Source of the DNA: Escherichia coli
GTDB taxonomy: Bacteria > Pseudomonadota > Gammaproteobacteria > Enterobacterales > Enterobacteriaceae
Assembly (NCBI RefSeq): GCF_013122565.1
Contig: NZ_CP053258.1
Direction: 5' to 3' (one strand)
Length of the DNA: 64,000 nt
The position numbers and the translations under genes are program-made. Positions 10,372-64,000 of the stretch are shown here, in pieces; position 1 is the stretch's first letter, and each line of letters opens with the position of its first letter. The notes below the pieces were generated by a model, which saw nothing but the letters and a program-made list of their open reading frames with translations, searched no databases and was not told where the DNA came from.

Positions 10372-10447
10372 TGGTGGGTCGTGCAGGATTCGAACCTGCG
10401 ACCAATTGATTAAAAGTCAACTGCTCTACCAACTGAGCTAACGACCC
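10372..10447 (-). tRNA. lysQ: tRNA-Lys (UUU)
   Basis: 76-nt exact copy of the tRNA-Lys sequence on the minus strand, CCA encoded, anticodon loop CUUUUAA. Confidence 0.9.
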
Positions 10448-10480
10448 CTTGCGGGATTATGCTGCTTTAATCATTCAGGA

Positions 10481-10556
10481 TGGTGGGTCGTGCAGGATTC
10501 GAACCTGCGACCAATTGATTAAAAGTCAACTGCTCTACCAACTGAGCTAACGACCC
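10481..10556 (-). tRNA. lysZ: tRNA-Lys (UUU)
   Basis: Identical 76-nt tRNA-Lys copy. Confidence 0.9.
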
Positions 10557-10604
10557 ATACGGGTGTTACCTGAAAGATTTCTACTCGGAACCAATCTTTA
10601 AAAT

Positions 10605-10702
10605 TGGTGGGTCGTGCAGGATGACTCGCTTCGCTCGCCCTACGGGCCGTTGCTGGCGCAACGTTATCCTTCACGCTTAACATCTGAGTTTGATGTTAAA
10701 AC
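10605..10702 (-). repeat. spacer repeat carrying a truncated tRNA-Lys 3' end (copy A)
   Basis: Starts with the 3'-terminal ~17 nt of tRNA-Lys (rc tggtgggtcgtgcagga) then diverges into a GC-rich ~80 bp unit; near-identical to the copy at 10909-11006. Confidence 0.6.
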
Positions 10703-10778
10703 TGGTGGGTCGTGCAGGATTCGAACCTGCGACCAATTGATTAAAAGTCAACTGCTCTACCAACTGAGCTAACGACCC
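10703..10778 (-). tRNA. lysY: tRNA-Lys (UUU)
   Basis: Identical 76-nt tRNA-Lys copy. Confidence 0.9.
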
Positions 10779-10781
10779 GAG

Positions 10782-10857
10782 TGGTGGGTGATGACGGGAT
10801 CGAACCGCCGACCCCCTCCTTGTAAGGGAGGTGCTCTCCCAGCTGAGCTAATCACCC
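10782..10857 (-). tRNA. valZ: tRNA-Val (UAC)
   Basis: 76-nt tRNA on the minus strand (rc gggtgattagctcagctgggagagcacctcccttacaagg...), anticodon UAC, CCA encoded. Confidence 0.9.
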
Positions 10858-10908
10858 GATACTGCGCTGGATACTACAAACTACTTCCACCGAACCCACC
10901 GTAATTAG

Positions 10909-11006
10909 TGGTGGGTCGTGCAGGATGACTCGCTTCGCTCGCCCTACGGGCCGTTGCTGACGCAACGTTATCCTACACGCTTAACATCTGTCTTCGATGT
11001 TAAAAT
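10909..11006 (-). repeat. spacer repeat carrying a truncated tRNA-Lys 3' end (copy B)
   Basis: Same structure as copy A with 3-4 substitutions. Confidence 0.6.
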
Positions 11007-11082
11007 TGGTGGGTCGTGCAGGATTCGAACCTGCGACCAATTGATTAAAAGTCAACTGCTCTACCAACTGAGCTAACGACCC
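11007..11082 (-). tRNA. lysW: tRNA-Lys (UUU)
   Basis: Identical 76-nt tRNA-Lys copy. Confidence 0.9.
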
Positions 11083-11084
11083 GG

Positions 11085-11160
11085 TGGTGGGTGATGACGG
11101 GATCGAACCGCCGACCCCCTCCTTGTAAGGGAGGTGCTCTCCCAGCTGAGCTAATCACCC
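11085..11160 (-). tRNA. valT: tRNA-Val (UAC)
   Basis: Identical 76-nt tRNA-Val copy. Confidence 0.9.
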
Positions 11161-11195
11161 GATACTACGCTGGATACTACAACTAACTATGTTAG

Positions 11196-11268
11196 TGGTG
11201 GGTCGTGCAGGATGACTCGACTTCGTCTCGCCCTTCGGGCCGTTGCTGACGCAACGTTATCCTTCACG
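11196..11268 (-). repeat. spacer repeat carrying a truncated tRNA-Lys 3' end (copy C, more diverged)
   Basis: Same tRNA-Lys 3' fragment followed by a related but more diverged GC-rich segment. Confidence 0.5.
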
Positions 11269-11295
11269 TTTTACTACCGCTTCCACCTTAGCGCT

Positions 11296-11371
11296 TGGTG
11301 GGTCGTGCAGGATTCGAACCTGCGACCAATTGATTAAAAGTCAACTGCTCTACCAACTGAGCTAACGACCC
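11296..11371 (-). tRNA. lysT: tRNA-Lys (UUU)
   Basis: Identical 76-nt tRNA-Lys copy; first gene of the operon on the minus strand. Confidence 0.9.
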
Positions 11372-11535
11372 ACTTTTTCGTTGCTTTCGGTTTGTTTGAT
11401 ATCCCGTGGCAACGGCGGCATATATTACTGATTTCAGACTTGAGCGCAACAAAAATTTCGATGTAGATCACTCAACTGCTTATGATTCGCACGACACGAC
11501 CAGAAATAATGCGACTTCTGGTCGTGTGTTATGCA

Positions 11536-12327
11536 TTACATCGCGTTCAGACGTTTTTGCGCCTGTTTAGCGCCATCAGTACCAGGGTATTTACTGATAA
11601 CCTGCTGGTATACGGCTTTCGCTTTTGCGGTGTCACCTTTGTCCTGCATGATGACGCCGACTTTAAACATCGCATCTGCAGCCTTTGGTGACTTCGGATA
11701 GTTTTTCACTACCGAAGCAAAATAGTACGCCGCATCATCTTTTTTACCCTTGTTGTAGTTTAACTGACCCAGCCAATAATTGGCGTTTGGCAGGTAAGTT
11801 GAATCAGGGTAATTTTTGATGAAATTCTGAAATGCCACCATTGCGTCATCCTGGCGGGATTTATCCTGCACCAGCGCAATAGCTGCATTGTAATCCGTGT
11901 TTGCATCGCCGCTTTTCACCGGCGCGCCAGCATTCGCAGTACCAGCATCAGCTGTCGGCGTCGTTGATGCCGCCGCACCGCTTTGATCACCGCTGGTTGA
12001 TTGCGCCGCTGCACCACCGCTGCTGAGGCTGTCGATCTGCAACAGGATCTGCTTTTGCCGCTCCACGACCTGATTCAGTTGATACTGATTTTCCTGAATC
12101 TGACCACGCAGGGAATCAATATCGGATTGATTATCAGAGAGTTGTTGCTGGAGTTGGGTTAAAAGCTGGCTGTGAGCATTAGAAATACGCTCAAGTTGAG
12201 TGACGCGGTCTTCGACCGAGCCTGAGCCGACACTACTGATTGGTGCCTGAGCAAAAGCGGCCCAGGGGGCCGCTATACCAACCAGTAACGACAGACTCAA
12301 TAGTTGATGTCTGAAGTTACTGCTCAT
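11536..12327 (-). CDS. cpoB: cell division coordinator CpoB (YbgF), periplasmic TPR protein
   Basis: 263 aa ORF with a signal peptide, Gln-rich coiled-coil N-domain and C-terminal TPR-like repeats; last gene of the tol-pal cluster. Confidence 0.9.
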   Translation of the reverse strand: MSSNFRHQLLSLSLLVGIAAPWAAFAQAPISSVGSGSVEDRVTQLERISNAHSQLLTQLQQQLSDNQSDIDSLRGQIQENQYQLNQVVERQKQILLQIDSLSSGGAAAQSTSGDQSGAAASTTPTADAGTANAGAPVKSGDANTDYNAAIALVQDKSRQDDAMVAFQNFIKNYPDSTYLPNANYWLGQLNYNKGKKDDAAYYFASVVKNYPKSPKAADAMFKVGVIMQDKGDTAKAKAVYQQVISKYPGTDGAKQAQKRLNAM

Positions 12328-12336
12328 GCAATTCTC

Positions 12337-12882
<546 letters not shown>

Positions 12883-38467: not shown

Positions 38468-38640
38468 CCCGTAGGCCTGATAAGACGCGTCAGCGTCGCA
38501 TCAGGCATCGCTTGTCGGATGCGGCGCGAGCGCCTTATCCGACCTACATCGGTGCTTCCCGTAGGCCTGATAAGACGCGTTAAGCGTCGCATCAGGCTTC
38601 AATGGCCGGAGAAGGCGATAATGCCTTATCCGGTCTACAG
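38468..38640. repeat. REP/BIME cluster in the sucB-sucC spacer
   Basis: Two tandem ~85 bp units each beginning cccgtaggcctgataagacgcg...gcgtcgcatcaggc, typical REP palindromes. Confidence 0.75.
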
Positions 38641-42872: not shown

Positions 42873-42993
42873 CGCCTGATGCGCTGCGCTTATCAGGCCT
42901 ACGGGTAATGACGTGTAGGCCGGATAAGGCGTTCACGCCGCATCCGGCACTGGTTGCCTGATAAGACGCTTGAGCGTCTTATCAGGCCTACGG
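42873..42993. repeat. REP/BIME cluster in the sdhB-sucA spacer
   Basis: gcctgatgcgctgcgcttatcaggcctacg ... gcctgataagacgcttgagcgtcttatcaggcctacg palindromic units. Confidence 0.75.
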
Positions 42994-60380: not shown

Positions 60381-61793
60381 TCCTTTCCTCGCTTCTTCAT
60401 ACGCTGCCAGCGTTCGCAGCCTTGCCTCTTTGTGATCAACTATCGGTTGCGGATAATCCAGCATCACACCTGCTTTCTGCGCCCACTTCCACGGCTCATG
60501 CACCGCTTTCCCTGGTACATCGCGCAGCTCCGGTAACCATCGGCGGATAAACTCACCTTCGCGATCAAATTTCTCGCCCTGGGTTGTCGGGTTAAAAATA
60601 CGAAAATACGGCGCAGCATCGGTTCCGGTGGAGGCCGCCCATTGCCAGCCACCGTTATTGGCTGCCAAATCACCATCAATCAGCTGCGACATGAAATATC
60701 GCTCGCCTTCGCGCCAGTCGATCAATAAATCTTTCACCAGAAAACTGGCTGTAATCATCCGTAGCCGGTTATGCATCCAGCCAGTGTTGTTAAGCTGACG
60801 CATGGCGGCATCGACAATCGGGTATCCGGTTTTACCTTCCTGCCAGGCCTGTAAATGGGCGGGATTGCTTTGCCATTGCACGCGGTCGGTCCAGGCAATA
60901 AACGGTCGATGTTTACACAACGAGGGGTAATACGTCATTAGATGACGGTAGAACTCGCGCCAGATCAGCTCATTAAGCCAGACACTACCGGCCCCACCGT
61001 CCAGCGCCTGAGGCTGTTCCGCCAACAGGCGATGCAAACACTGGCGAGGCGATAACCCGCCCGTTGCCAGACTGGCGGACAAACGACTGGTGCCTTCCAC
61101 TGCCGGAAAATCTCGTTGTTGCTCATACTCTCCGGCACCGTTCTGGCAAAACTGGCGTAATTGCGCAATCACCGCTTTTTCTTCCACCGGGAAATGCGCA
61201 GTATCGAAAGACTGACGAGGATAATTCAGCGTAATGGATGGCGCGGGCTCTATCGATCCGCTACTACGAACTTTTGGTGCAGTGACGCACTCCGGCATCC
61301 CTTCCCGCAGCCGTTTCAGCCAGGCATTCTTAAAAGGCGTAAAGACTTTGTACATCTCGTGATTGCCGGTCATCACCGCCCCCGGCGGCAGGATCACGCT
61401 GTCATCAAATCCTTCACACACCACGTTACGCAGCGCCCTCTCAGCCTGCACATCCCGCGCCCGCTCATTCACCTCATACTGATAGTTATAAAACAGATGG
61501 GTAATGCGATTTTCCACGCACACCTGTTTAACTGTTTCGACACTGGCAGCAAAGTCATCCACTTCACGGAACAATAAAGGAATGCCTTTTTCCGCCAGCG
61601 CTATTCGTAGCCCATTCAGTTGCGCATTGATAAATTCAGCCTGACGCGGCGACATATTATGCACTGCCCACTGGCGCGGTGTAGCGATATACAACGCCAG
61701 CACGCGTGCAGACGAATTGCGGCAGGCGGCAGCCAGCGCGAGATTATCATGCAGACGTAAATCCTGGCGAAACCAGACCAGATGGGTAGTCAT
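60375..61793 (-). CDS. phr: deoxyribodipyrimidine photolyase
   Basis: 472 aa, MTTHLVWFRQDLRLHDNLAL (photolyase N-terminus) with a C-terminal FAD-binding domain. Confidence 0.93.
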   Translation of the reverse strand: MTTHLVWFRQDLRLHDNLALAAACRNSSARVLALYIATPRQWAVHNMSPRQAEFINAQLNGLRIALAEKGIPLLFREVDDFAASVETVKQVCVENRITHLFYNYQYEVNERARDVQAERALRNVVCEGFDDSVILPPGAVMTGNHEMYKVFTPFKNAWLKRLREGMPECVTAPKVRSSGSIEPAPSITLNYPRQSFDTAHFPVEEKAVIAQLRQFCQNGAGEYEQQRDFPAVEGTSRLSASLATGGLSPRQCLHRLLAEQPQALDGGAGSVWLNELIWREFYRHLMTYYPSLCKHRPFIAWTDRVQWQSNPAHLQAWQEGKTGYPIVDAAMRQLNNTGWMHNRLRMITASFLVKDLLIDWREGERYFMSQLIDGDLAANNGGWQWAASTGTDAAPYFRIFNPTTQGEKFDREGEFIRRWLPELRDVPGKAVHEPWKWAQKAGVMLDYPQPIVDHKEARLRTLAAYEEARKGA

Positions 61794-62299
61794 AAAGCTC
61801 CTGCATGGCGCAAGTTAATCACACGCGGCCAAAGTTCGAAATAACGCTGCCCTGAAAGCCAGGCGTCAGGATAAAGCGCCATATAGTGTTTGATACGCAT
61901 CAGCGGCGCAAGAAGCGGTTGCTCGCCACGGCGATAACTGTCGATAAGCGCAGCCAGCTGCTGGCGTTCTGTGGAATCAATATGTGGGCGAAAATAACCC
62001 TGAACGTGCATCAAAACGTTGGTGTGATCGCGCGTGTTGGCGGGGTGAGAAAGTAAAACGATTACACGTTGGCGGTACTGGTTGTAATAGTCATCCAGAT
62101 TTTGCCACCGATGAATATCAGCCACAAACGGGCCAAGTTTGCGGTATTCCGGCTGGTAATGCGCCAGAAAGACGAGTTTATAGCGGCTGTGATAATCGTT
62201 GAACGCCCCACGCGTTAGCCCATGTTCTTTCAGTCGATGTAACTCATGAAGGGCGAAGATACGGATTAGGGTGCTTTCATCAAATCGTTGCTGATTCAT
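61790..62299 (-). CDS. ybgA: DUF1722-family protein YbgA (co-transcribed with phr)
   Basis: ORF 61790..62368 trimmed to MNQQRFDESTLIRIFALHELHRLKEHGL after an aggag RBS; 169 aa; stop overlaps the phr start. Confidence 0.85.
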   Translation of the reverse strand: MNQQRFDESTLIRIFALHELHRLKEHGLTRGAFNDYHSRYKLVFLAHYQPEYRKLGPFVADIHRWQNLDDYYNQYRQRVIVLLSHPANTRDHTNVLMHVQGYFRPHIDSTERQQLAALIDSYRRGEQPLLAPLMRIKHYMALYPDAWLSGQRYFELWPRVINLRHAGAL

Positions 62300-62343
62300 T
62301 ACTGCTCCTGAACGGTTTACAGGAGTAAGTGTAGACGGCGAAA

Positions 62344-62372
62344 AGAAAAAAACCGCCAGCGTTTCCACTAGC
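62344..62372 (-). terminator. putative rho-independent terminator after ybfA
   Basis: Minus-strand aaaccgc-(loop)-gcggttt followed by uuuuuuucuuu; the loop is long, so confidence is moderate. Confidence 0.45.
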
Positions 62373-62400
62373 GGTTTTCAATGTATTCAAAACTCAGCAA

Positions 62401-62607
62401 TCAGTAAAAATCACCGGTTGCCTTTTCGGCCTGATCCATCCAAACCGGTTTATCGCTGGTTTTCGACCAGACGCGATGCAGGTAGCTGTAAAAGCGGGCG
62501 CGGTCTTTCCAGAAAAGCATGAAAGGCAGCGCCAGAACGCCCGCTGCAACCGCATAAGTACGGCGTAAAAAGATAAGCCATGCAGGATATTCTCTGTAGA
62601 GTTCCAT
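62401..62607 (-). CDS. ybfA: small membrane protein YbfA (DUF2517)
   Basis: 68 aa, [49 protein letters not shown]; divergent from kdpF. Confidence 0.8.
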
Positions 62608-62919
62608 ACTTTTCTCCCCCTTTTGTATCTACCCGGTGAATAGCACCGGAAAAATGAATTTGTTTATCTGATGAAAATAGTACCGCCTTTTGTGTAATTT
62701 TACTACTCATCCGACCACTTATTTTTGCTTATTGATGGTTTATTTACATTCATCCTGTAATTAAGTTACACAAAAGTTAAATTAATACTAAACGTTAGTT
62801 AAATCATGGCTTTTGCCATTTTTATACTTTTTTTACACCCCGTCCGCAGATTTTTGCGAAATCTTTGCAGCCAGAATTCTACCCTTCCGGTATCACTTTT
62901 AGGCCACTGGAGGTGCACT

Positions 62920-63009
62920 GTGAGTGCAGGCGTGATAACCGGCGTATTGCTGGTGTTTTTATTACTGGGTTATCTGGTTTATGCCCTGATCAATGCGGAG
63001 GCGTTCTGA
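62920..63009 (+). CDS. kdpF: K+-transporting ATPase small subunit KdpF (29 aa)
   Basis: GTG at 62920 after a GGAGG RBS; translates to (M)[28 protein letters not shown]; the 67-aa track ORF 62806..63009 is an unsupported extension of this frame. Confidence 0.8.
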
Positions 63010-64000
63010 TGGCTGCGCAAGGGTTCTTACTGATCGCCACGTTTTTACTGGTGTTAATGGTGCTGGCGCGCCCTTTAGGCAGCGGGCTGGCGCGGCTGAT
63101 TAATGACATACCTCTTCCCGGTACAGCGGGCGTTGAACGTATACTCTTTCGTTTACCTGGCGTCTCTGACAGTGAGATGAACTGGAAGCAGTATCTCTGT
63201 GCCATTCTCGGCCTGAACATGCTGGGGCTGGCGGTGCTGTTTTTCATGCTGCTCGGTCAGCACTATCTACCGCTTAATCCACAGCAGTTGCTGGGGCTGT
63301 CGTGGGATCTGGCGCTGAATACCGCCGTCAGCTTTGTCACGAATACCAACTGGCAATCTTATAGCGGTGAAACCACGTTGAGCTATTTCAGCCAGATGGC
63401 GGGCTTAACGGTGCAAAACTTTCTTTCTGCCGCCAGCGGGATTGCGGTGATTTTTGCCTTCATCCGTGCATTTACCCGCCAGAGCATGAGCACACTCGGG
63501 AATGCCTGGGTCGATCTGCTACGCATCACGTTATGGGTGCTAGTCCCTGTGGCGTTGTTGATCGCACTGTTTTTTATTCAACAAGGTGCACTGCAAAACT
63601 TTCAGCCTTATCAGGCGGTGAATACCGTTGAAGGAGCGCAACAGCTGTTACCAATGGGTCCGGTGGCTTCTCAGGAAGCGATCAAGATGCTCGGCACTAA
63701 CGGCGGTGGTTTCTTTAATGCCAACTCGTCGCATCCGTTTGAAAACCCAACCGCACTGACCAACTTCGTGCAGATGCTGGCGATCTTCTTGATCCCAACA
63801 GCGCTGTGCTTTGCCTTTGGTGAAGTGACGGGCGATCGCCGTCAGGGGCGCATGTTGCTGTGGGCGATGTCGGTGATTTTTGTCATCTGCGTAGGCGTGG
63901 TGATGTGGGCAGAAGTTCAGGGTAATCCTCATCTGCTGGCGCTGGGTGCGGACAGCAGCATCAATATGGAAGGTAAAGAGAGCCGTTTCGGCGTGCTGGT
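63009..64000 (+). CDS. kdpA: K+-transporting ATPase subunit A, 5' partial (runs past the window end)
   Basis: ATG at 63009 overlaps the kdpF stop (ATGA); begins [35 protein letters not shown]; open frame to the window edge, so absent from the ORF track. Confidence 0.9.

Follow-up and report, generated by a model that had tools for sequence, protein, structure and literature searches.

Near the end of the window, the whole 64,000-nt stretch of Escherichia coli DNA analysed here, the mechanical ORF list holds a 67-aa plus-strand frame (62806..63009) that opens with ATG. Direct reading placed kdpF in the 3' portion of this frame, at 62920..63009 (+): 90 nt, comprising a GTG start (62920-62922), 29 sense codons and a TGA stop (63007-63009). 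A Shine-Dalgarno (SD) sequence GGAGG (62909..62913, +) precedes the GTG, separated from it by the 6-nt spacer TGCACT; this arrangement within the 67-aa frame, described in an earlier note on this DNA, was confirmed by direct reading and the ORF list. Downstream lies the 5' part of kdpA (63009..64000, +), whose ATG (63009-63011) opens 330 codons cut at the window end. On the other side, the 38-codon in-frame "extension" (62806..62919, +) is noncoding and holds an operator, a promoter and the 5' leader. The divergent neighbour is the DUF2517 gene ybfA (62401..62607, -), which is matched by PF10725 (E = 2.9e-34) and annotated by PGAP.

The 29-aa product scored above the cut-offs of all three curated KdpF family models. 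The NCBIfam equivalog NF011332 (76.7 bits, cutoff 56) spanned residues 1-29 of 29; TIGR02115 (34.0 bits, cutoff 26.85) and Pfam PF09604 (28.9 bits, cutoff 21.2) covered only residues 6-29. When the whole 67-aa translation was submitted, only residues 39/40-67 were matched, and the first 38 residues had no family-model match in the Pfam/NCBIfam scan. KdpF chains of exactly this sequence are present in 25 PDB entries (29/29 residues for 6hra_D, 27/27 for 5mrw_D). Through this identity to solved chains, it is predicted to be a hydrophobic peptide of the expected size (about 25-30 residues) with a single transmembrane helix, the fourth subunit of the K+-pumping P-type ATPase KdpFABC. The deposited PDB sequences, which follow annotation, and the comparative evidence given below would both place its N-terminus at the GTG.

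Existing annotation agrees with these boundaries. PGAP put kdpF on exactly the equivalents of 62920-63009 in all seven E. coli loci fetched, so that the comparison with annotated kdpF and kdpA proposed in the earlier note returned the same coordinates throughout. Of 5426 complete E. coli genomes, 5423 have the kdp region, which is covered in full in 5422, and kdpF was named beneath the match in every row shown of that comparison. Knowledge and annotation of kdpF go back to the 1990s; the gene is present in RefSeq, and its product is visible in crystal and cryo-EM structures. The gene described here is already known and its RefSeq annotation is correct; the small protein is not new.

The junction between kdpF and kdpA reads TTC TGA TGG, that is, TGATG at 63007-63011, in which the A of the kdpF stop is also the A of the kdpA ATG. 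The earlier note was right that stop and start overlap but not about the motif: ATGA, a 4-nt overlap, is absent from this junction on direct reading, and only one base is shared. PGAP likewise set the kdpF end and the kdpA start on one base in the syntenic E. coli loci. kdpF abuts kdpA as the first cistron of the kdpFABC operon; kdpB comes after kdpA in the syntenic E. coli locus, and kdpB and kdpC fall past the window end here. The 330 translated kdpA residues matched the KdpA models of Pfam (PF03814, E = 2.9e-128) and TIGR (TIGR00680, E = 7e-172). As had been noticed before, kdpA is missing from the ORF list, because its frame is stopless to 64000 and the ORF tool omits frames that run off the window end.

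The overlapping stop and start looked for in a coupled gene pair are present in this TGATG, which was invariant in a 12-sequence alignment. A 1-nt overlap was also found in 29 of the 29 junctions of the unbiased genome set described below, though it was demanded by the scan pattern used to collect them. Judged from the overlap, coupling of kdpF and kdpA is plausible; it cannot be assumed, because kdpA has a GGAGG of its own, its likely SD (62997..63001, +), lying in kdpF codons Ala26-Glu27-Ala28 and 7 nt before the kdpA ATG. Independent initiation of kdpA is equally possible. A stricter arrangement, in which kdpA is translated only through termination-reinitiation at TGATG, draws on the invariance of the 1-nt overlap across the 12 aligned sequences; it is possible but somewhat doubtful, since the kdpA GGAGG stands at the optimal 7-nt distance for initiating on its own. 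According to PMC3618439, which cites Gassel (1999), Kdp can work in vivo without KdpF, a point that also sits uneasily with strict coupling but by itself is not about coupling. The motif GCGGAG(G/A)C was kept in 10 lineages of the protein-ascertained set, whereas the 29-genome set is not independent for the kdpA SD, the junction pattern itself having demanded an internal GGAGG-type motif. The invariant Ala-Glu-Ala codons at the C-terminus might conceivably be held mainly as the kdpA SD, in which case kdpF would in part be a translational launch pad for kdpA.

The KdpE operator lies inside the "extension". Its half-sites, TTTATA (62821-62826, +) and TTTACA (62832-62837, +), are 5 bp apart and reproduce the experimentally defined S1 and S2 sites with their 5-bp gap (PMC3264566). 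This exact match at 62821-62837 to TTTATA-N5-TTTACA, the arrangement expected about 50-70 bp before the transcription start site (TSS), points to a KdpE-dependent promoter, and the operator is nearly invariant between genera in our alignment. Genomic SELEX gave a single KdpE target peak in the kdpF/ybfA spacer (PMC5934670), and the KdpE footprint of Sugiura (1992), as cited in PMC3264566, covers -72 to -50. An RNA polymerase cryo-EM preprint numbers the half-sites -67 to -62 and -56 to -51 (bioRxiv 10.1101/256826), and this numbering places +1 at 62888.

The putative core promoter (62851..62885, +) comprises the conserved TTTTTGCGAAATCTTTGC block and a -10 candidate, TACCCT (62880-62885). A conservation profile over ten lineages showed invariant bases at TTTTT (62851-62855), CTTTGC (62863-62868), A62881 and T62885; the assignment of -10 and -35 hexamers is nonetheless putative. 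The -10 candidate points to a +1 at about 62892, and we therefore give the approximate kdpFABC TSS as the range 62888..62892 (+), with a leader of 28-32 nt, a position carried over from the E. coli K-12 literature, in which one of the two sources used a promoter "derivative". A consensus promoter scan of 62560-63060 returned no sigma-70-like site on either strand; for a KdpE-dependent promoter this is uninformative, and it is expected, because activator-dependent promoters match the consensus weakly. No structured leader was indicated by folding of 62888-62960 (dG -22.2 kcal/mol, z = -0.66, 60 of 200 shuffles as good), and a scan of the whole window at Rfam gathering thresholds had nothing at the kdp locus.

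Two terminator-like hairpins, at 62806-62819 (the upstream ATG) and 62938-62954 (inside kdpF), were considered and set aside as chance, having short stems and a structure unconserved between genera. In the first, the palindrome ATGGC-TTTT-GCCAT has a perfect 5-bp stem with a T-run after it; the hairpin takes in the upstream ATG and borders the KdpE operator, and its stem is unconserved beyond Escherichia and Citrobacter and so probably due to chance.

A conserved AT-rich block (62759-62803) lies 5' of the KdpE operator. Within it, GTTACA (62765)-N5-GTTAAA (62776) has the 6+5+6 layout of the KdpE site, and AGTTAAAT follows at 62797, with 11- and 22-bp phasing. Among the 26 junction-scan loci with the operator pattern, 20 carried the block 55-57 nt before half-site S1, Pantoea stewartii among them; it was absent from the loci of Erwinia, Mixta, Edwardsiella and, apart from P. 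stewartii, Pantoea. The literature searched held no function for the block, which could be the ybfA promoter/operator or a second response-regulator site. E. coli S51 carries an ISVsa5 (IS4-like) transposase gene about 147 nt before kdpF (279-1487 of the fetched locus; equivalent to window position ~62786), an insertion that parts the kdp promoter from ybfA and the AT-rich block and keeps the KdpE operator.

Translation of the whole 67-aa ORF, from ATG 62806 to 63006, would yield an N-terminally extended KdpF. Besides the window, most E. coli, E. albertii, several Citrobacter and a single Pluralibacter genome have this ATG frame open, and 67-aa versions have been deposited as GenBank proteins under names such as "ATPase" and "K+-transporting ATPase, F subunit". 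Against this, ATG 62806 is upstream of the KdpE operator and, on the literature-based +1, would precede the 5' end of the mRNA by at least 82 nt; there is no source of read-through transcripts, because the only upstream gene, ybfA, is divergent. The ATG is preceded by TTAGTTAAATC, in which there is no SD, and E. coli AR_0086 has ATT in its place. Of the frame's 67 residues, the family models recognise just the final 29. Moreover, the T-rich stretch 62803-62919 holds a single stop triplet in any frame, and 20% of its mononucleotide shuffles had an equally open frame without an in-frame stop. We regard the extended protein as extremely improbable, and the 67-aa ORF has arisen by chance, the stop-poor, T-rich promoter beneath it being open in the kdpF frame.

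Comparison with other genera led to the same view. The 67-aa query found proteins of 63-72 aa in Citrobacter, Enterobacter, Klebsiella, Salmonella, Cronobacter, Erwinia and other genera, a number of them bearing the name "ATPase" or "KdpF". In their alignment, the C-terminal 29 residues were conserved and the N-terminal parts fell into three classes (FILFLHP..RFLRNLC, LYFFYT..DFCEIFA and FFTPR..IFAKSL). These three classes are the three reading frames of one conserved promoter DNA, and the long calls therefore represent no conserved longer protein. In Klebsiella, the codon taken as the start of the long ORF is ATT, and the upstream "start" in Enterobacter is a GTG. When nine of these loci were aligned with the window, the operator, the TTTTTGCGAAATCTTTGC block, GGAGGTG, the start codon and the TTCTGATG junction were invariant or nearly so, and the kdpF SD GGAGG was invariant in the 12-sequence alignment. 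The length between the -10 region and the SD was variable, and the operator-to-start distance was 97, 98, 99 or 100 nt in this first set, so that the 67-aa frame shifts against the conserved operator from genus to genus.

Because this first set of nine loci had been ascertained through the 67-aa query, it is biased towards an open long frame and was replaced for the open-frame question. A single genome of each species was searched for the junction pattern GCGGAGRCNTTCTGATG, which is blind to the upstream frame. The scan returned 120 stretches, of which about three quarters, chance matches in unrelated phyla, were removed, leaving 29 Enterobacterales junctions. kdpF was exactly 29 codons long in all 29. 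Its start, at -90, was GTG in 27 and ATG in two (Edwardsiella hoshinae and Enterobacter cloacae), an interchange at codon 1 that reads as a start-for-start substitution. GGAGG stood 6 nt before the start in 26 of the 29 and 5 nt before it in two. Upstream of the start, the nearest in-frame stop came within 10 codons in 13 of the 29 genomes, some Enterobacter and Citrobacter species among them, and in 16 it was no more than 23 codons away; a 38-codon ATG-started extension was present in only six. Operator-to-start distances of 97, 98, 99, 100, 101 and 104 nt covered all three phases.

The substitution pattern separates the two parts of the 67-aa frame. Pairwise divergence at codon positions 1/2/3 was 0.21/0.06/0.37 for kdpF codons 2-24 in the unbiased set and 0.17/0.06/0.35 for codons 2-29 in the first set, and 0.35/0.33/0.31 for the 38-codon extension in the first set. 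Codon periodicity is thus found inside kdpF only, and kdpF combines a conserved start and ribosome-binding site with coding-type evolution. Initiation at the upstream ATG, the observation named in the earlier note as fatal to its reading, is opposed by the operator and promoter inside the extension, by the stops and by the lack of codon periodicity. A weaker variant, in which rare pre-operator transcripts in Escherichia and Citrobacter allow ATG 62806 to produce a 67-aa KdpF isoform with a second hydrophobic segment, deserves next to no credence. In Pantoea stewartii CCUG 26359, kdpF carries a 1-nt deletion (GGG to GG before TAT), with a frameshift after codon 16 and a premature stop, and is either a pseudogene or an assembly error.

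The start could also lie further inside, at the in-frame GTG of codon 5 (62932-62934), which would give a 25-aa peptide and accords with Pfam and TIGR models that span only residues 6-29. However, this codon was GTG in only 11 of the 29 genomes and GTA, CTG, CTT, TTA, TTG, ATT, GTT or CTA in the others; varying among Val, Leu and Ile codons, it behaves as a sense codon. Lying 18 nt upstream, the GGAGG is too distant to act as its SD, NF011332 matches residues 1-29 in full, and all 29 genomes have a start codon at codon 1, with GTG and ATG interchanged. The internal GTG 62932 was rejected on codon-5 variation and SD distance, and we give this shorter peptide practically no chance.

Taken together, it is very nearly certain that 62920-63009 is kdpF, the GTG-started, 29-codon first cistron of kdpFABC, and that the 67-aa frame is spurious. 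The earlier note's claim of a 29-codon kdpF embedded in a longer, spurious frame is backed by the family models, PDB identity, PGAP, promoter position and cross-species comparison. Gene identity, boundaries, start-codon conservation, the noncoding nature of the extension and the location of the operator by sequence match are established in this analysis.

These features suggest a course of events for the locus. It is established that KdpD phosphorylates KdpE under K+ limitation (PMC3264566, PMC5934670). KdpE would then bind the direct repeat at 62821-62837 and activate a sigma-70 promoter, from which RNA polymerase would start at about 62888-62892 and produce an unstructured leader of 28-32 nt. 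Ribosomes recruited to GGAGG 62909-62913 would initiate at GTG 62920, decoded as fMet, and the 29-aa peptide would insert into the membrane as a single helix and stabilise KdpABC, a stabilising role that PMC12648545 and PMC3618439 report with reference to Gassel (1999). Terminating at TGA 63007-63009, ribosomes would stand one base into the kdpA ATG, and kdpA would be translated by re-initiation or by fresh initiation at GGAGG 62997-63001, probably by both.

Several observations concern the surroundings of the locus. In the window, ybgA-phr directly follows ybfA (61790-62607) without an Rhs element between them. Of 5424 complete E. coli genomes, the ybgA-ybfA stretch is contiguous in only 1466, and most have rhsC or RHS/CDI-immunity genes there. 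Across the 24 kb of window positions 40000-64000, no complete E. coli genome was more than about 97.2% identical, and for phr-kdpF the best value was 96.4%. Judging by these identities, the source of the window seems to be a divergent Escherichia lineage and not one of the mainstream E. coli phylogroups. The mechanical ybgA ORF (61790-62368, -) is 192 aa from a GTG, and DUF1722 covers only residues 64-181; the true ybgA start may be further downstream, which would make this another over-extension by longest-ORF calling. Elsewhere, a tRNA cluster at 10372-12436 (-) comprises five Lys-UUU and two Val-UAC genes, seven in all, with three RtT repeats placed between them, and the window also contains the cpoB/ybgF RNA thermometer and two matches to naRNA4 (REP-derived), with listed coordinates 38474-38544 (-) and 42918-42988 (+). 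The tRNA cluster, RNA thermometer and naRNA4 matches are ordinary for this region of E. coli.

The understanding of the Kdp system is unchanged by these results, and what they offer is a lesson in annotation: longest-ORF logic sets the wrong bounds on a gene as small as kdpF, and the public 63-72-aa "KdpF" or "ATPase" entries are the kdpFABC promoter read in whichever frame is open.

The closest known counterpart is kdpF of E. coli K-12 (WP_001272653.1; PDB 6HRA/5MRW chain D), which has the same amino acids, GTG start, GGAGG with a 6-nt spacer, 90-nt length and TGATG junction. In the K-12 derivative DH5a, the kdpF nucleotides are identical to those of the window and the KdpE operator is the same. 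Over 321 aligned nt, the window departs from K-12 only at 62794 (G for A) and at promoter position 62843 (T for C), neither of which is in kdpF, and there is no functional difference. The direct succession of ybfA and ybgA-phr in the window, with no Rhs element, is a further point of difference. The wider KdpF family (PF09604, TIGR02115), which includes the 30-aa mycobacterial KdpF, likewise consists of a short, hydrophobic, single-helix first cistron before kdpA (PMC3618439) and shares the C-terminal half L-x-Y-L-x-Y-A-L ... E-x-F. The enterobacterial members have their own equivalog, NF011332, and both regulation and start codon vary by phylum within the family. Beyond the family, KdpF resembles AcrZ, MgtS and similar E. 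coli products, whose very short ORFs also stabilise or modulate a large membrane complex and are readily missed or mis-bounded by ORF-length calling (PMC12648545). Set against these, KdpF has been annotated since the 1990s and is present in solved structures.
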